Shown here: positions 1 to 12,945 of the stretch, one piece after another | Layout of the letters: each line of letters begins with the position of its first letter | Position numbering within the stretch: the first letter of the stretch is position 1 | Position numbers and translations under genes: made by a program | Origin: Bacteriovoracaceae bacterium | GTDB taxonomy: Bacteria; Bdellovibrionota; Bacteriovoracia; Bacteriovoracales; Bacteriovoracaceae | Direction of reading: 5' to 3' | NCBI GenBank assembly: GCA_048270185.1 | Contig: JBLWTJ010000008.1 | Coordinates: 1 to 12,945 of the forward strand | DNA: 12,945 nt | Notes under the pieces: generated by a model | The model's database searches: none | Told to the model about the DNA's origin: nothing | What the model saw: the letters and a program-made list of their open reading frames with translations, nothing else

Positions 1-57
1 AACCTGTGACCTTCGGTTTCGTAGACCGACACTCTAAATCCGCTGAGCTATACCCCC
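1..57 (-). tRNA. tRNA-Arg(ACG), 3' end truncated by window edge
   Basis: Reverse complement reads GGGGGTA-TA-GCTC-AGCGGATTTA-GAGT-G-TCGGT-CTACGAA-ACCGA-AGGTC-ACAGG-TT: acceptor 5' strand, U8A9, D-arm with GG and A20, 5-bp anticodon stem with ACG, start of T-arm. Confidence 0.95.
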
Positions 58-5492: not shown

Positions 5493-5789
5493 CTATTTCC
5501 TGCCTCTATGAGGATTGTTTGCTTGCTTCCATCCTTCAATAGCTAGTTTCTTTGTTGTGTCATGTGACTCAAACCCATAAGGGCATGAAATTGGGTCATG
5601 CACCACTACATGAGGATGATCTCTATCTAATAGACATCCTTCGCATGGAGACTCTTTAGAACATTCTGAAGAGCAGTTTTCGCCCCAAGTTGTGTCATAA
5701 AAATACTTCGGACTTTCCTTACAGTTAAAGCACTTCAACCTATGAAGGATAATTGGATTCTCTTTTGTAGGCAGTTCTGATTCACACAT
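5493..5789 (-). CDS. small Cys-rich putative zinc-binding protein (98 aa from ATG 5789)
   Basis: CFNC, CSSEC, CEGC, plus C-terminal TKKLAIEGWKQ reminiscent of Lar-like phage proteins. GGAG SD precedes ATG 5789, which overlaps the end of the upstream gene (translational coupling). Confidence 0.75.
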   Translation of the reverse strand: MCESELPTKENPIILHRLKCFNCKESPKYFYDTTWGENCSSECSKESPCEGCLLDRDHPHVVVHDPISCPYGFESHDTTKKLAIEGWKQANNPHRGRK

Positions 5790-6999
5790 CAATAAGCACT
5801 CCATTATGTAACCAGTTTACTTTATGAGCTTCATCTTCAATTGGCAATTCAAACTTTGAACACTGATTTTCAATAACCTCAGGGATAACTCGTTTTTTAC
5901 GGCTTTTGTTATCAATGTGAAGTTGCGCTTTATCTTTGATGAAAACAAAAAATCGAACATAAGCTTTGTACTTAAACGCTAGTTCAGTAACCTTGCTCCT
6001 AAAGTCATATCTGTAGTTTGTTGCATCCCAAATTACATGATTTCCACTTCTCAAGTGATCCTTTAGTTCCTCTAGTGCAATTCTTAACACTTCATTGTTC
6101 ACATCTTGTGAGTCAATGTGTTTAAACCTAGCTCTAATGTTGTCCATACTAATGACAGGGCATTCAGGTACTGTTTTTGTGTATGTAGATTTGCCAGAGC
6201 TAGCCACACCAACCAAAACATCTACAATTGGATAGCCCATGTGAGCATAAGGTTTACTTAGAGACTCTTCAATCATATAGATGTTGCCATCAATAATGTT
6301 TGAAATACCTCTGATACTAATATGCTCAGGGTTTTGACTTGGCTTATGAATTAATTTAGCAACTTTTTCTTTTTGCTTTAGCTCATAATCTTTGAAGTAA
6401 CCACCAAGATTGTAGTCTAGATAGTTGAGTTTGAAAAACTCAACATAGTCAAGTTGCTCTTGTTTGTCTTCACAGTCTCTACCTAAGATATCTGCCATTG
6501 CTAAGTAATAAAGCAGGTCGAGAGATTTTACCTCTCTAAATAGGCGAATGTATGAACGGTAGTCTTCATTTCGGATCACCAATAACTTTGCTTGCTGGTG
6601 GAATCCAACTAGCTTGATGATGACCAACCATTCTTCATATGTAAGCTCATGTGGCTTTTTGCATGAAAATAATAATGATGCACCAATCTGCTCGTGCTTT
6701 GGCGCTACAACGCGAATCTCGCCATTGATTTCTCTTTCATGAGTTGTGATTGGCTTCGCGTAGTCGTGCAAAGCTGCTGACCAAAGAAGAATTTTTTGTT
6801 CAGACTCAGAAAGTTGCGGATTTTTTAAAATTAGTTTTTTCATCTCTTGGATAACTAGGTCTGTGTGAATTTTCACATTACCTTCACTATGCCAACGACT
6901 GTCTTGAACGGTACTTTCAAATTCCGCTAGTAGAGGAAATTCTTGAAGGTGATTGTTCAAAACTGAGTCTAGAGAGAAAGAATGAACAAAATCACTCAT
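5782..6999 (-). CDS. HD phosphoesterase + P-loop kinase fusion (HD-Pnk-like RNA end-healing enzyme)
   Basis: HD domain: WHSEGNVKIHT, AALHDYAKP, KHEQIGA, FHQQ, MADILGR. Kinase: GVASSGKST, ISMDNIR, VIWDATN, lid NKSRKKRV. AGGAGG SD. Confidence 0.88.
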   Translation of the reverse strand: MSDFVHSFSLDSVLNNHLQEFPLLAEFESTVQDSRWHSEGNVKIHTDLVIQEMKKLILKNPQLSESEQKILLWSAALHDYAKPITTHEREINGEIRVVAPKHEQIGASLLFSCKKPHELTYEEWLVIIKLVGFHQQAKLLVIRNEDYRSYIRLFREVKSLDLLYYLAMADILGRDCEDKQEQLDYVEFFKLNYLDYNLGGYFKDYELKQKEKVAKLIHKPSQNPEHISIRGISNIIDGNIYMIEESLSKPYAHMGYPIVDVLVGVASSGKSTYTKTVPECPVISMDNIRARFKHIDSQDVNNEVLRIALEELKDHLRSGNHVIWDATNYRYDFRSKVTELAFKYKAYVRFFVFIKDKAQLHIDNKSRKKRVIPEVIENQCSKFELPIEDEAHKVNWLHNGVLIDV

Positions 7000-7022
7000 A
7001 CTGCCTCCTTAAAGCTTTCCTT

Positions 7023-7062
7023 ATTATATATAAAAACAGGCACAAGTAAATACCTTGTGCCT
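7023..7062 (-). promoter_or_regulatory. terminator hairpin of the upstream operon overlapping the HD-Pnk promoter
   Basis: Stem AGGCACAAG (7038-7046)/CTTGTGCCT (7054-7062) with GTTTTT on the minus strand. TTTACT (7050-7045), N16, TATAAT (7028-7023). Confidence 0.65.
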
Positions 7063-7093
7063 ACTAAGCGAGTTTTTGTTTTGTAGCTATAAA

Positions 7094-8492: not shown

Positions 8493-9101
8493 ATGCGATA
8501 CTCATTACTAATCTGTATGATTTTAATGCTCGGTTGTGCAAGAGCGAATGCAATGGATAGGACAGGAGTCGAACCGTCAGATCCATTCAATTTTTCTAAA
8601 ATTGCCGATGATCTCATGAAAAGTTATGACATTGTGGATATGAAAATTTCAATGTTCAGTGAGCAAAACACGGTATGTCGATTTTTAAAAATGTCATTCT
8701 TCGAGATTGAAGTGGTATCGAGACTTATAGATTTCGGCGGTGATGATTTGCAAGGAACTCAAAACGCTAAGCAATATCAGCAGTATTTTCTGAATAGAAA
8801 GATTCAGTTTGATGAAAGAACCAGTCTGTCTATGGGTGTGGGCGCGGTACTATCATTTAAAACTGATGAATCCATGAGAAATCTTCTTGCGAACAATGCT
8901 TTGGTAATTGAAAAGACAGGCGTTCCCGTAATGATGTCTCAAATTTCATTCAATACAACCCAACCGATCTCAGAGCATTCAACTATAAATTTTGGGATTA
9001 AGGTCGTAAAGGATTTTGACGCATTCGGATCAAAAAAGGGTATGTATCAAAAGAGTATGAGTGAGTCTCAGCTATCCTTAGAATACGTGCTTACATTTTA
9101 A
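8493..9101 (+). CDS. putative outer-membrane beta-barrel protein (202 aa)
   Basis: Signal peptide ending A-N-A, alternating amphipathic strands, and C-terminal QLSLEYVLTF beta-signal with terminal Phe. Confidence 0.65.
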   Translation: MRYSLLICMILMLGCARANAMDRTGVEPSDPFNFSKIADDLMKSYDIVDMKISMFSEQNTVCRFLKMSFFEIEVVSRLIDFGGDDLQGTQNAKQYQQYFLNRKIQFDERTSLSMGVGAVLSFKTDESMRNLLANNALVIEKTGVPVMMSQISFNTTQPISEHSTINFGIKVVKDFDAFGSKKGMYQKSMSESQLSLEYVLTF

Positions 9102-9110
9102 CTTTTTATA

Positions 9111-9139
9111 TTGATTAATAATTCTCATAACGTTATGAT
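9111..9139 (+). promoter_or_regulatory. promoter of the RING/TerD gene with 14-bp palindromic operator candidate
   Basis: TTGATT (9111-9116), N17, TATGAT (9134-9139). Perfect palindrome TCATAACGTTATGA at 9125-9138. Confidence 0.6.
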
Positions 9140-9188
9140 TAATGGCTAATTAAATTAAATAAAATCTAGTCAATCTAAAGGATTCTTC

Positions 9189-11750
9189 ATGAAAACTCAT
9201 GTGCAAACAGAAAATCAAGATAATTCGAACTTTCAACACTTACAATCAATAATGCTTTCAAAGCGTAGTGCGTACTATGTAAAGAGCGAATCATCTTCCA
9301 ACCCTGTGAGCGCTGAAATCGCTAAAGAGATTTTTGATGAGATAGACACAGAGATGCTGCGTCTAGGTTACGTCATGTCAGCACATTTAAAGCTTTCGTT
9401 AAAACAGCTTTCAGAAGAATCTTTGATTGAAGAAGCTAAGTCACTTATCTATACGCTTTCTGAAGCAAAAGGTGATCTTAATAATTTTGTGACTCTTCAC
9501 GCCAACTTCCCTTATACAGCTCAAGATCGTTCTTACCATGATAACCGAGCTGGAGTGATTTTTAGCCACATCTTCGGCTTAAATGCCAAACCTACTTCAC
9601 TTCAGGTCAAGTTACCATGCGGTTGTTCTTTCGATGATCAATTATTCGACTTATCCATGTTCAATGCTTGCCCTGTATGCCAGCATCAAGTCGAGGGATT
9701 ATCCGACAATGTAGAAGGTGAAAAGCAAGGAACTGTTGAATTTTCTCTTAACGATAACATCGTTAAGTTATCAAATGTTGGACTAGCATCTAAAGCTGAT
9801 TTATTTGAGGTTTTCGGCAACTTACTAGCATCAAGCACATCAGTTACGGCTTTTGATAAAGAGTTTGTTAAGCAAGTCATTATTGAATTCAAAGAAGAGG
9901 CTCTTGAATACATTCCTGTTTCGATTGCACATAAAGAACAACTTTGCTTTCTTACTGGAGTGATTTCTGAACACTTGCCAGAAGCTATTGAGCTTATGAG
10001 ACACAAATTCAAAACATATACGGATGTGTTGCGATTAGCAGCTTACCTGAGTGGTTTTGATGTTTCTCTTGAGGCATGTAAGAAAATCAGATTTAAGCTG
10101 TCCAGAAAGCAACGTAAGTTGGTTATGACTCTATTAGATAGACATATGCTTATGGAAGACATGATTCGTCGTAGAGGGCTTTTCTTAGCCTTAGGTCGAT
10201 ACTTACATGTTGGAGCTGAATCAAACAAGTATCCTCATGCTGCACATGCTTTCAATGTCCTACGCAACGACCATAAAAGTATCAAGACTTTTAACTCGAA
10301 GAAAGAAGCTCTGTTGATGGATGCTATGGGTGTTCAGCAGACCCCAAAAGGAACTATCCCTAAAAAAGACGTGGAAATTCAATTACACAACACATCTTTG
10401 AAAGTAACTATTGGTGATACTGTTGGTGATAAAACACTAAAAACTCTCCTAGCCATGTGTTCGGAAAAACATGAAAGTGTTGAATCTTCTGAAAAGCTTG
10501 CTACTGATTTAAAAGAAAGAGGTGAAGCATTCACAGCTTTGGTAAGCTTACTTTCTTCACGACCAGGAGAGTTTGCCAGAAATATCGATTTGATGTTGAG
10601 AATTGGCGATGCTTTAGGCGATGATTACACCGAAATTGTAATTAATGCTTTAGAAAAATCAGTTGTTCAAGAATTGAAGATTAGTCAGTTATTCCAACTA
10701 AGAGCTTATTTTAATAGCCGTGTGGTAAATGAAGGATACCGATACTTCATTCCAAAAGGAAACCGAGCTAAACTTTTCTATCTTGAAGAGGATAAGCGAG
10801 ATTCACTGAGTCAAGCTAATGCTAATAAAGTATCATTATGTCTATTAGCAGAAATCAACAAACGGCTATCTCAAAAAGAACCCTTGGGTACTGTTTACAT
10901 TGATCCAGCATTAAAGAACATTGTTCTTCCGCTTTCCATGCGATCTATGGCTTCCTCACTATCACTTTATCCAAGAGGTAGCCGAATTCCTTTAGAGAAA
11001 GATGCAGACATCCTGCGCATGTTCATGTACTGGAAAGGTGAAGTTGATTTTGACTTGAGTGCAAAAGCGCTTGATGAAAGCTGGAACACAATGAAAGATA
11101 TTGGGTATTGGACATACTGGGATTGTGATCCAGAGGATACATACTCTGATTGGAGTCAGGACGAATGGGCTAGGTTCAGTGGCGATATTCAAGATGCACC
11201 ATTGGGCGCTGCTGAGTGTATTGATATCAATATCAAAAAATGCGCTGACATGGGTATCCGATATGTAGTTATGTTCGTTAATATCTTCAGCGGCGGTAAA
11301 TTTGAAGATTACAATGCCTTTGTTGGAGTGATGGAAAGAAAGGATGCTAAAGTTGGTGAGTTGTTTGAACCATCTTCTGTTAGTCAGAAACTTGACCTTG
11401 TTGGAGAAAGCAAAGGTTGCGTTCCTTTAATCTTGGATATCCAGGATATGTCTTACTTCGTTTGCGATATGGACTCTTCGACTAGAGCCGATGGTCTAAA
11501 CTCCAGCACAGAATCTAAAAAGATGATTAATATAGCTAAATCAACGGAAGCAATGAGCCGTACAAATCCTACGATGTACGACTTGGCGTTAGCGAATGCT
11601 GTTGCAAGAGGTCAACGTGTCACTTTAGTAGATAAACCTATTGAAGAAATCGTTAATGATGAAGTCGTGAGGCACGAAATTGACTTTAGGTTCGATATGG
11701 ATTTTGCCATGCAATTAGATACCGTAATGGGTAAATGGCTTGTAGATTAA
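9189..11750 (+). CDS. prokaryotic RING-like Zn knuckle + helical domain + C-terminal TerD-like domain protein (resembles the MXAN_6230/SCO0854 family)
   Basis: LPCGC...FDLSMFNACPVC knuckle, TYTDVLRLA, RYLHVG, RPGEFARNID, PRGSRIP, and TerD-like acidic motifs DFDLSA and FSGDIQDAP..AAECIDI. AAGGA SD. Family assignment is from motif recognition, not a search. Confidence 0.8.
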   Translation: MKTHVQTENQDNSNFQHLQSIMLSKRSAYYVKSESSSNPVSAEIAKEIFDEIDTEMLRLGYVMSAHLKLSLKQLSEESLIEEAKSLIYTLSEAKGDLNNFVTLHANFPYTAQDRSYHDNRAGVIFSHIFGLNAKPTSLQVKLPCGCSFDDQLFDLSMFNACPVCQHQVEGLSDNVEGEKQGTVEFSLNDNIVKLSNVGLASKADLFEVFGNLLASSTSVTAFDKEFVKQVIIEFKEEALEYIPVSIAHKEQLCFLTGVISEHLPEAIELMRHKFKTYTDVLRLAAYLSGFDVSLEACKKIRFKLSRKQRKLVMTLLDRHMLMEDMIRRRGLFLALGRYLHVGAESNKYPHAAHAFNVLRNDHKSIKTFNSKKEALLMDAMGVQQTPKGTIPKKDVEIQLHNTSLKVTIGDTVGDKTLKTLLAMCSEKHESVESSEKLATDLKERGEAFTALVSLLSSRPGEFARNIDLMLRIGDALGDDYTEIVINALEKSVVQELKISQLFQLRAYFNSRVVNEGYRYFIPKGNRAKLFYLEEDKRDSLSQANANKVSLCLLAEINKRLSQKEPLGTVYIDPALKNIVLPLSMRSMASSLSLYPRGSRIPLEKDADILRMFMYWKGEVDFDLSAKALDESWNTMKDIGYWTYWDCDPEDTYSDWSQDEWARFSGDIQDAPLGAAECIDINIKKCADMGIRYVVMFVNIFSGGKFEDYNAFVGVMERKDAKVGELFEPSSVSQKLDLVGESKGCVPLILDIQDMSYFVCDMDSSTRADGLNSSTESKKMINIAKSTEAMSRTNPTMYDLALANAVARGQRVTLVDKPIEEIVNDEVVRHEIDFRFDMDFAMQLDTVMGKWLVD

Positions 11751-11760
11751 GGTTGTAATA

Positions 11761-11789
11761 AAAAAGCCCATTCAATTGAATGGGCTTTT
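11761..11789 (+). terminator. intrinsic terminator (bidirectional type)
   Basis: Perfect 28-bp palindrome AAAAGCCCATTCAA-TTGAATGGGCTTTT (11762-11789). Confidence 0.9.
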
Positions 11790-11808
11790 AATTTAAAGAT
11801 AAAAAAGA

Positions 11809-11837
11809 TTGCATTTAGAATACCTTTAGAGTAGTAT
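11809..11837 (+). promoter_or_regulatory. promoter for the non-coding unit
   Basis: TTGCAT (11809-11814), N17, TAGTAT (11832-11837), with an A-tract upstream. Confidence 0.7.
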
Positions 11838-11843
11838 TTACAA

Positions 11844-12123
11844 CATGGAAGCTTAGAGATGACTTTGAGTTTCTATATCATGGCTTAGAATTTTCTTCCT
11901 TCTAACTATATTTTTTCTTTCAAAAAAAACGCTGATAGAGAATTCAATTTCCATGATTCGCAACTTTGTTGCGATACCATTAGATACTTTGTAGCGTCTA
12001 ATGGTATCTCATTAGAGATGGCACGGCACAAAACTTTCTTCCTTCTAACTTACAAAATTAAAATTGCATATTTGATCATAGAGAGTTTAATTTCCGATAA
12101 AAGCACCCAGAAGGGTGCTTTTT
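11844..12123 (+). ncRNA. candidate structured ncRNA with two copies of one fold (11853-11957 and 12012-12096)
   Basis: No ORF of note, own promoter and terminator. Shared blocks TTAGAGATG, TTTCTTCCTTCTAACT and ATAGAGARTTYAATTTCC, with compensatory changes in the paired stems between copies. Confidence 0.75.
12099..12123 (+). terminator. intrinsic terminator ending the ncRNA unit
   Basis: AAAAGCACCC-AGAA-GGGTGCTTTTT. Confidence 0.9.
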
Positions 12124-12164
12124 GCTTTTATTAAATAATAAAATTGGCGATAAAGGGTTAATAA

Positions 12165-12800
12165 ATGAAAGATTATGAGCTGATATATCAAGGAATTTTA
12201 GAAAAAAATCGGGATTTGATAACTACTGAGGATATTATCGTCGCACTACACCTAAAGAACATTCTTAATCAAAAGATTGTCATGATCAGGTCTATGAGCA
12301 AAGAAAACGATAAGGAAACAGTAATTAATAAGCTTGAGGGAAAGGTTTCTGAGCTTGAGAAAGTTGCTTTGCCAGTGAATGTTATTGATACCATAGAGTG
12401 CTTAGAAAAACTGATAAACAAAAACCCAAACAAGCTAACTGACTTCGATTTATGCTTATCAGAATCGCTCAGAGAGCGTCTGGCTGGTCTTCATAGCTAT
12501 TTAAGGGGGAAGTGTAGTAGAACCAGTTTTGGAAAGAGAGCGCCTTTCACAATCACTTCACTAAAAAGGCTTCCATATAAAAAAGATTTTCGATTGATTT
12601 TTCATTCAATAAAGAGAGCCAGTGACATTGCAGATGAGATTTCAATGTATAAAATCTGGTGCATGGATGGAAATGCAGTCAATGGTCTTGTAATTCATAA
12701 AGATAGAGAAAGATACCTGAATCAGTTAAAAAAACTAAAAGAAGACCTTAATGCAAATATGGATAAAGTTAAGGTTTGGGTTAATTTGCCGAATAGATAA
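12165..12800 (+). CDS. hypothetical protein (211 aa)
   Basis: Long ORF, AAGGG SD, downstream terminator. No recognised motif. Confidence 0.85.
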   Translation: MKDYELIYQGILEKNRDLITTEDIIVALHLKNILNQKIVMIRSMSKENDKETVINKLEGKVSELEKVALPVNVIDTIECLEKLINKNPNKLTDFDLCLSESLRERLAGLHSYLRGKCSRTSFGKRAPFTITSLKRLPYKKDFRLIFHSIKRASDIADEISMYKIWCMDGNAVNGLVIHKDRERYLNQLKKLKEDLNANMDKVKVWVNLPNR

Positions 12801-12804
12801 AAAT

Positions 12805-12837
12805 ATAGAAACCTCTACCTTGAGGTCTCTATGTTTT
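12805..12837 (+). terminator. probable intrinsic terminator
   Basis: ATAGAAACCTC-TACCTT-GAGGTCTCTAT (one mismatch) followed by GTTTT. Confidence 0.6.
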
Positions 12838-12945
12838 ATAAAGCTCTAGAACTCTAAAGCTTTTTCATTAGAAGTATTTATGTCATAAATATAAACTTCA
12901 AAATTCCTGTCTCCAAAATCTATCAAATCATTGCGATTGCAATCT

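Follow-up and report, generated by a model that had tools for sequence, protein, structure and literature searches.

A probable two-module structured RNA gene and candidate small RNA family on a ~0.9-Mb Vibrio replicon

The window analyzed here, a stretch of 12,945 nucleotides (nt) that makes up the entire contig C8 (JBLWTJ010000008.1) of a Bacteriovoracaceae assembly (GCA_048270185.1), very probably contains a real structured RNA gene in the region 11838–12130. We infer that the stretch from ~11830/11845 to ~12130 is an independent plus-strand gene for a highly structured non-coding RNA of ~285 nt (285–300 nt), which carries two homologous modules in series. Judged by its sequence, the window is not DNA of the predatory bacterium of the assembly and belongs to a ~0.9-Mb Vibrio replicon of low guanine-plus-cytosine (GC) content, a Rep.3-type "chromid". 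The candidate small RNA (sRNA) family is new, well supported, and confined to this one giant replicon, and no family or paper describing the RNA was found.

Module 1 (11877–11957, plus strand) consists of an outer stem, P1 (11877–83/11951–57; 7 bp), an internal loop (CUUA/AAUUU), an inner stem, P2 (11888–96/11937–45; 9 bp, one of them U·G), and a 40-nt loop, and its DNA reads, in order, ATCATGG, CTTA, GAATTTTCT, TCCTTCTAACT, 29 variable bases, AGAGAATTC, AATTT, and CCATGAT. Module 2 (12024–12096, plus strand) has the same arrangement, with a P1 of 3 bp (12024–26/12094–96), an internal loop CACA/AAUUU, a P2 of 9 bp (12031–39/12080–88; again one U·G pair), and a 40-nt loop; its DNA reads CGG, CACA, AAACTTTCT, TCCTTCTAACT, a variable loop, AGAGAGTTT, AATTT, and CCG. 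The outer stem of the second copy has just 3 bp because four outer pairs of the first have no counterpart there. A repeat finder gave a spacing of exactly 143 nt for the 5′ halves of the modules and again for their 3′ halves, and this common register makes the two large loops equal in length. Outside a shared 11-mer, UCCUUCUAACU, the loop sequences are essentially unrelated and have diverged to near-random. The 11-mer occupies 11897–11907 in module 1 and 12040–12050 in module 2 (plus strand); together with the five bases before it, it forms a 16-mer, UUUCU-UCCUUCUAACU, that is identical in both modules, and the 11-mers are the only long unpaired stretches identical between the paralogs. Two kinds of unpaired element are thus conserved in each module at a fixed distance from one another, namely the internal loop CNNA/AAUUU and UCCUUCUAACU plus a 3′ AU.

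Alignment of the two modules gave evidence that the stems covary. Three of the 16 pairs in the structure differ on both sides, and none differs on one side; the double changes are G–C/A–U and U–A/C–G in the 9-bp stem and U–A/C–G in the outer stem. Restricting the count to the 12 pairs common to both modules leaves it at three double and no single changes. All alignment cells (100%) pair in the 9-bp stem and 87.5% in the structure as a whole, a value that fell to 31–56% when partners were slid by 1–3 columns. By a simple combinatorial estimate, the chance of six changes landing in three pairs with pairing kept is ~6 × 10−5. An earlier note, made from the letters alone, had described two compensatory swaps in the inner stem, a third in the outer stem, a shared U–G pair, and an internal loop and 11-mer conserved between diverged large loops. 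Each of these descriptions held in the alignment, and the strings and coordinates quoted in that note were all present, including TTAGAGATG, which stands ahead of both modules at 11853 and 12012. Since the available alleles are nearly identical, a cross-species covariation analysis was impossible, and the covariation evidence is that of the comparison between the two paralogous modules.

The predicted fold of the whole RNA comprises seven elements, in the order H1, module 1, H3, H4, a 4-bp hairpin, module 2, and the terminator, all on the plus strand. Hairpin H1 (11845–11876; 14 bp, four of them G·U, loop AUGA) includes the first copy of UUAGAGAUG; H3 (11958–11974) has 7 bp and a UUU loop; H4 (11975–12006) has 11 bp + 2 bp; and the small hairpin UCUC-AUUA-GAGA (12007–12018) overlaps the second UUAGAGAUG (12012–12020). 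The plus strand of 11838–12130 folded at −82.3 kcal/mol (z = −6.97), and 0 of 200 shuffled sequences folded as well, whereas single modules alone were modestly stable (z = −2.1 and −1.6). In this fold, the mean predicted probability of being unpaired was 0.86 for the first 11-mer and 0.78 for the second, compared to 0.39 over the entire RNA. A stable fold is predicted for the minus strand too (z = −5.1). H1, however, has a predicted energy of −14.8 kcal/mol (z = −6.3) on the plus strand and 0 kcal/mol on the minus strand; seven of the 81 predicted pairs are G·U, four in H1 and one in each P2; and a C>U change at 11972, in H3 of one allele, converts a G–C pair to G·U and keeps the pairing. H1, the G·U pairs, the 11972 change, and the orientation of the terminator together assign the RNA to the plus strand.

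A further contact could exist within this model. UUAGAG in the conserved 9-mer and UUCUAA in the 11-mer offer six possible pairs, which are weak (−3.7 kcal/mol) and could form an alternative or pseudoknot pairing; that the 9-mer of copy 1 is buried inside H1 weighs on this idea. The word UUAGA occurs in the RNA at 11853, 11885, 11980, and 12012, and its complement UCUAA at 11902, 11998, and 12045.

The 3′ boundary of the gene is marked by an intrinsic terminator (12099–12130, plus strand), which begins 2 nt past module 2. A terminator scan, independent of the fold, found its stem at 12099–12122, with 10 pairs, 5 of them G–C, a loop of 4, and a T-rich tail (U-rich in the RNA), in agreement with the terminator proposed in the earlier note. 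Terminator-like sites are in excess in the region (4, compared to 0.6 ± 0.8 in shuffles), and among alleles the terminator varies solely in its loop. At the 5′ side, a promoter region (11792–11837, plus strand) contains two overlapping candidates that match the consensus. One of these, TTGCAT-17-TAGTAT (11809–11837), had been named as the promoter in the earlier note; it is visible by eye, but its first hexamer matches at 3/6 positions, it falls below the promoter-scan rule, and sites of this kind occur at chance frequency. The scan listed instead TTTAAA-18-TAGAAT (11792–11821). All four hexamers are invariant in five alleles, and from the two candidates the 5′ end is predicted at ~11828–11845.

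Between these boundaries, no open reading frame (ORF) of at least 60 amino acids (aa) overlaps the RNA stretch, consistent with the claim that it lacks a meaningful ORF. The stretch contains four ORFs of 34–41 aa, none of them conserved. The sole small ORF with an ATG start (12018–12134, plus strand) loses that codon through G>T at 12020 in 2/5 alleles, and the equivalent frame in module 1 meets a stop after two codons; on the minus strand, both overlapping ORFs are put out of frame in one allele by an additional A at 11921/2. A small peptide product is ruled out by these unconserved start codons and reading frames.

Variation among alleles also bears on the RNA. Five alleles align at 98% and have 11 variable sites inside the RNA, of which seven are unpaired, one is the wobble kept at 11972, one (11993) belongs to a marginal helix of 2 bp, and two break a pair (the P1 closing pair at 11877 and, in one allele, a pair of H4 at 12004). 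The 11-mers, P2, and AAUUU are untouched. Compared to the most distant allele, 6/288 sites of the RNA differ (2.1%), whereas 111/1337 neutral-like sites differ (8.3%; third codon positions of both neighboring genes plus flanking spacers; binomial P = 8 × 10−6); against all sites of both neighboring genes (4.4%), P was 0.03. In this comparison of sequences the RNA is fourfold more conserved than neutral-like sites, which indicates purifying selection. Thus, five lines support selection on the fold of a plus-strand RNA: the compensatory changes, H1, the G·U pairs, the C>U change at 11972, and the low divergence.

No described family accounts for the RNA. At gathering thresholds, a search of the whole window with Rfam 15 gave a truncated tRNA at 1–57 as its sole match; at E up to 10, the region 11740–12180 gave 39 weak matches, none reaching threshold, and within the RNA body the highest score was 21.6 bits, where the thresholds are 41–229. 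The earlier note's statement that the RNA belongs to no named family therefore stands in the Rfam 15 covariance search. Full-text literature searches listed no account of an RNA gene on this replicon, and the PLSDB gene tables, which omit RNA genes, have nothing under the RNA locus.

We also searched for the RNA with a covariance model, R1, built from the two modules, which themselves score 105–108 bits. In three whole plasmid records, R1 found the two modules each, with the next match at E = 0.09, indicating a single copy of the RNA in each replicon. Across 150 genomes from the family of the predator, R1 gave noise (best match 30 bits, E = 0.013), and the ten best matches lacked the motif set. 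BLAST found no homolog of the RNA elsewhere in the assembly, among 40 relatives of its main organism, or in a phage collection; in a plasmid collection, near and distant modes returned the same four Vibrio records only. Motif-pattern scans gave 10 matches in a genome collection, about the chance expectation and none of them a full module by R1, 1 and 0 matches in a viral collection, and 0 in a metagenome collection. The earlier note had suggested reaching homologs through the flanks of the gene for an 853-aa protein at 9189–11750; this route failed, as synteny via that protein gave no loci in metagenomes or viral contigs. In a tblastn search of plasmids with the same protein, identities fell from at least 95% directly to at most 35%, and so no intermediate relatives of the replicon could be reached. 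The stretch itself is nearly unchanged in twenty public runs from 13 studies. Among the collections searched, the RNA was found, by sequence comparison, only on the Vibrio Rep.3/chromid replicon. A 16-mer with two mismatches to the RNA motif, TTTCTTCTTTGTAACT, occurs at 717804 and 717906 (plus strand), 102 nt apart, in the main contig of the predator (C1).

The assignment of the window to Vibrio follows from its identity to known plasmids. Positions 9000–12945 are 99.3%, 98.9%, 95.4%, and 95.3% identical to four 882–939 kb plasmids of Vibrio parahaemolyticus and V. vulnificus, and the whole contig is 96.8% identical to one of these. Of the 30 contigs in the assembly, 18, all small (C6–C8, C10–C12, C14–C16, C18–C20, and C23–C28), match the ~925-kb plasmid of V. 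vulnificus FORC_036 at 94–99.5%; the assembly is therefore a mixture, and findings on these 18 contigs belong to a Vibrio replicon and are not attributable to the predator. The contigs of the assembly have 34–39% GC, and the Vibrio DNA was probably binned or co-assembled with the predator genome owing to similar GC content. Replicons of the Rep.3 type add nearly 1 Mb to the genomes of V. cholerae, V. parahaemolyticus, V. vulnificus, and V. fluvialis (PMC4480378; PMC6381281). Rep.3 of V. cholerae TSY216 has 896 kb, 37.3% GC, 66 tRNAs, and 999 coding sequences, 960 of them without known function, and was stable over 30 daily subcultures and lost at 42 degrees (PMC4480378). PMC6381281 reports that V. 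vulnificus FORC_36 and SC9729 carry ~900-kb chromids with a GC content of 37.2%, and it is on this source that our equation of the window's replicon with the Rep.3 kind of TSY216 rests. In the FORC_036 plasmid record (NZ_CP015514.1), ARAGORN lists 85 tRNA genes, compared to the 66 reported for TSY216 Rep.3 (PMC4480378). The tRNA gene at window 1–57 (minus strand; 34.9 bits in Rfam) is cut by the contig end.

What might the RNA do? The terminator is strong, follows module 2 at a distance of 2 nt, and lacks a visible antiterminator alternative, and the RNA is therefore most simply its own gene. Several sRNAs that block ribosome-binding sites (RBSs), such as RsaE and RoxS, are terminator-ended RNAs with a duplicated, exposed, pyrimidine-rich motif, and it is this shared design that leads us to favor a trans-acting base-pairing sRNA. 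In the proposed mechanism, each module would expose UUUCU-UCCUUCUAACU as a single strand on the 5′ side of the large loop, the two redundant motifs would pair in trans with purine-rich, Shine-Dalgarno-like mRNA segments (…AGAAGGA…), and this pairing would alter the translation or stability of the target mRNAs. The complement of the motif, AGUUAGAAGGA, includes the Shine-Dalgarno-like AAGGA. An Hfq-type chaperone, either that of the host or one of two divergent Hfq-like proteins of the replicon, would assist. A single-stranded conserved seed, as in Hfq-dependent sRNAs, is suggested by the predicted exposure of the motif, the identity of the 16-mer, and its invariance in five alleles. We infer trans action, pairing as opposed to protein binding, and the involvement of Hfq, and hold the whole statement (an independent trans-acting base-pairing sRNA with two redundant pyrimidine-rich seeds, probably Hfq-assisted) tentatively, as somewhat short of an even chance. 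RsaE of Staphylococcus and RoxS of Bacillus share with this RNA an intrinsic terminator, several hairpins, and a C/U-rich motif present twice in loops, and they are stand-alone genes, as this RNA would be; AGAAGGA, the complement of the motif here, also resembles an RBS. Compared to RNAs of this type, however, the present one is two to three times longer at ~285 nt, is not similar to any Rfam sRNA, and has as its repeated unit an entire module of 80 nt, conserved internal loop included, as opposed to a loop motif alone.

Several observations weigh against this reading. On the replicon, the search for targets came up empty: the FORC_036 plasmid record has no further copy of the complement of the 11-mer; when up to two mismatches are allowed, the complement of the 15-mer has 2 other sites, compared to 5 for a reversed control; and sites with at least 10 contiguous pairs number 141 on the 925-kb replicon, compared to 370 ± 264 for shuffled seeds. 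A candidate target with 14/15 complementarity (NZ_CP015514.1 316512–316526, minus strand; L048) covers the RBS and start codon of the 50-aa protein WP_021485666.1 and is within chance expectation. The best duplex with a tRNA, at the D-arm of tRNA-Met(CAT), has −14.7 kcal/mol, which 8% of shuffled seeds equaled or bettered and which is not significant. A model of seed pairing alone has no need of the conserved CNNA/AAUUU internal loop, which suggests a tertiary contact or one with a protein. Comparative support consists of two paralogs plus five alleles that are ~98% identical, promoter-like sites are at chance level (5, compared to 4.8 ± 2.7 in shuffles), and against the FORC_036 allele the RNA differs at 2.1% of sites and its flanks at ~1%, with no extra conservation. 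Raw reads from two RNA runs under a species label that can carry the replicon (X22 and X23) gave 0 reads on the locus, which indicates that the strain sequenced lacked the element. Two assemblies of RNA libraries (X17 and X18) each contain one identical contig of 4498 nt, at a depth of 85 and with FORC_036-type differences, that spans the stretch; this contig gives neither strand, ends, nor level of a transcript, and DNA carry-over could also yield it. By arithmetic, it extends from ~30 nt before the 853-aa gene to ~17 nt past the start of the downstream convergent gene. These ends fit transcript-driven assembly, and transcription of the RNA is plausible.

The same uncertainty over transcription feeds the alternative that there is no RNA function at all and that the stretch is a relic at the DNA level (a local duplication that carries inverted repeats) or else a series of DNA sites, built on the TTAGA/TCTAA word, to which a protein binds. 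By eye, TTAGA or its complement occurs ~7 times in 280 bp, the minus strand folds too (z = −5.1), and the RNA-library contigs across the locus could derive from DNA carry-over. We nonetheless regard this account as very unlikely, as the G·U pairs and H1 work on the plus strand only, pairing was kept by compensatory changes while the loops diverged, the terminator is correctly placed and oriented, and the region is fourfold more conserved than neutral-like sites.

The gene that follows the RNA raises a different alternative to a trans-acting sRNA. An ORF of 211 aa (12165–12800, plus strand) starts 35 nt past the terminator tail, has no evident promoter of its own, and is a possible cis target or partner of the RNA. 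Its substitutions by codon position number 11/3/16, and the fewest being at second positions marks it as a real gene. The RNA could then be a cis-acting 5′ leader of this gene, in which the modules sense a ligand or protein and set terminator read-through, or in which UCCUU of the motif masks an AAGGG RBS. The order of promoter, two homologous domains, terminator, and ORF fits a leader, as does the intervening 39-nt spacer (12126–12164), which by eye lacks a promoter-like site and is the least conserved part (4/39 and 2/39 differences). As in aptamers, the conserved nucleotides lie in internal loops and the distal parts vary, and RNA and ORF co-occur in 5/5 alleles. Against a leader, no Rfam riboswitch or leader model matches; an inverted-repeat scan found no alternative (antiterminator) pairing for the terminator arms other than extensions of the terminator stem, and inspection by eye gave no more than 4–5 bp; P1 of module 2 is limited to 3 bp and shares no positions with the terminator; and a terminator of 10 bp followed by a U tail has the look of a constitutive one. 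We judge a leader unlikely. Tandem-domain riboswitches, such as those for glycine and the NAD+-I/nadA class, are known. Like the RNA, they place two homologous domains, each a bulged stem-loop, one after the other ahead of a terminator and an ORF, with conservation in the internal loops and variability in the distal parts; the present RNA, however, matches no riboswitch in Rfam 15, and no antiterminator was seen for it in the inverted-repeat scan.

The conserved internal loop is better explained if the RNA serves as a scaffold or sponge for a protein, perhaps a dimer, with twin sites whose recognition surface is the internal loop plus the 11-mer and through which the protein is titrated or assembled. 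Conservation of two kinds of unpaired element per module at a fixed distance would be expected of such sites, both loops are 40 nt although their sequences are unlike, the search of the replicon for base-pairing targets was empty, and Hfq-like proteins are encoded nearby. Two adjacent genes at NZ_CP015514.1 775437–775946 and 775964–776503 (L098 5438–5947 and 5965–6504; minus strand), ~12 kb from the RNA, encode Hfq-domain proteins that are unusually long (169 and 179 aa) and score 33.1 bits each against a Pfam cut-off of 27; the annotation of one reads "RNA chaperone Hfq". However, the replicon yielded neither a ProQ nor a CsrA domain, and the RNA has no GGA repeats of the CsrA/RsmA type; no protein partner was found, and the model of the neighboring 211-aa protein matches generic helical bundles only. 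CsrB/RsmZ sponges are alike in repeating one motif in hairpin loops of a single terminator-ended RNA, but here the motif is UCCUUCUAACU and not GGA, the predicted loops contain no GGA, the copies number just two, and no CsrA gene is present on the replicon. The evidence is compatible with binding and with pairing alike, and we consider a scaffold improbable, on a par with a leader. The earlier note had proposed selection on an RNA fold that presents protein-binding motifs; selection on the fold is upheld by the five lines given above, whereas for the motifs RNA pairing is at least as likely as protein binding. It is decidedly unlikely, in our assessment, that the RNA is the dedicated partner of the replicon's divergent Hfq-like proteins in a private riboregulatory system. 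If it were, a horizontally acquired replicon with a tRNA set of its own would use the two anti-Shine-Dalgarno-like loops to occupy RBSs, and could thereby re-program the translation of host or replicon mRNAs or silence its own genes.

The 211-aa protein is also central to the last alternative, a toxin–antitoxin system like those of type III, in which the repeated RNA would neutralize the 211-aa product, the terminator would set the ratio of RNA to protein, and the locus would help retain the replicon. According to PMC3401426, the order of promoter, direct repeats of structured RNA, palindromic terminator, and ORF within 50 bp is the defining order of type III loci and is shared by this one, and Rep.3 was stably kept over 30 daily subcultures (PMC4480378). 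PMC3401426 describes type III antitoxins as short head-to-tail repeats, with a ToxI unit of 36 nt, and uses Tandem Repeats Finder as the operational test for such arrays. Here, that program returned 0 rows for 11700–12300, even at a minimum score of 30, and the RNA has just two spaced, diverged repeats with a 143-nt period and three other hairpins between them. By sequence, the 211-aa ORF falls outside the ToxN, CptN, and TenpN families. Its AlphaFold model is confident, with a mean predicted local distance difference test score (pLDDT) of 89.9 with an alignment compared to 42 from the single sequence, and is all-alpha but for one beta-hairpin, which appears unlike ToxN, a protein that PMC3401426 relates to Kid/MazF. 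A type III system is, in our view, extremely unlikely.

Searches with the 211-aa protein were otherwise sparse. Like the RNA, the protein was missing from the 40 relatives of the assembly's main organism. It had no hit in NCBIfam, PADLOC, or PHROGs, matched three Pfam domains of unknown function below cut-off at E up to 10, and gave nothing in an Atlas search; a word-index search returned just the replicon's own two clusters. A HMMER scan of 1.84 billion representatives found eight remote clusters (27–38% identity), rare and unnamed, and the family alignment has conserved KNPNKF, SFKNIPxKK, YxIW, and NGLxIxxDRxRY. Foldseek gave no match to the model at E up to 0.001, and the helical bundles matched by VIA-align reached Z up to 9.1.

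Upstream of the RNA gene, a perfect palindrome of 14+14 (11762–11789, strandless, 100% complementary) resembles a bidirectional terminator, ends the 853-aa gene, and separates that gene from the RNA gene; it is here that the terminator portions of several Rfam models align. The 853-aa protein (window 9189–11750) matches the MXAN_6230/SCO0854 RING family with 363 bits, short of the equivalog cut-off of 600 bits, and is labeled "TerD family" in one record. Its relatives at no more than 35% identity lie on large plasmids of Variovorax, Streptomyces, Bacillus, and Clostridium. Elsewhere in the window, a gene at 5782–6999 (minus strand) encodes an HD domain fused to an AAA_33/Pnkp-like kinase domain. 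Between this gene and that for a 150-aa protein, the FORC_036 allele has an extra 2988-nt gene for a 995-aa hypothetical protein (L034 3912–6899, corresponding to window ~7000–7090), which neither the window nor the 16-VB00198 plasmid contains. Downstream of the HD-kinase gene, plasmid records contain an "RNA ligase family protein" and a metallophosphoesterase (L034 14920–15558 and 21264–21953). By their annotation, the HD-kinase, RNA ligase, and metallophosphoesterase, together with the many tRNA genes, look like an RNA repair or modification set.

Rep.3-type replicons carry ~1000 genes, of which 960 are reported as hypothetical (PMC4480378; PMC6381281). Against this background, the two-module design with its built-in covariation makes the RNA a clean object for structure probing, and a replicon-specific structured RNA beside Hfq-like genes offers a small, testable handle on the regulation of the replicon or its dialogue with the host.

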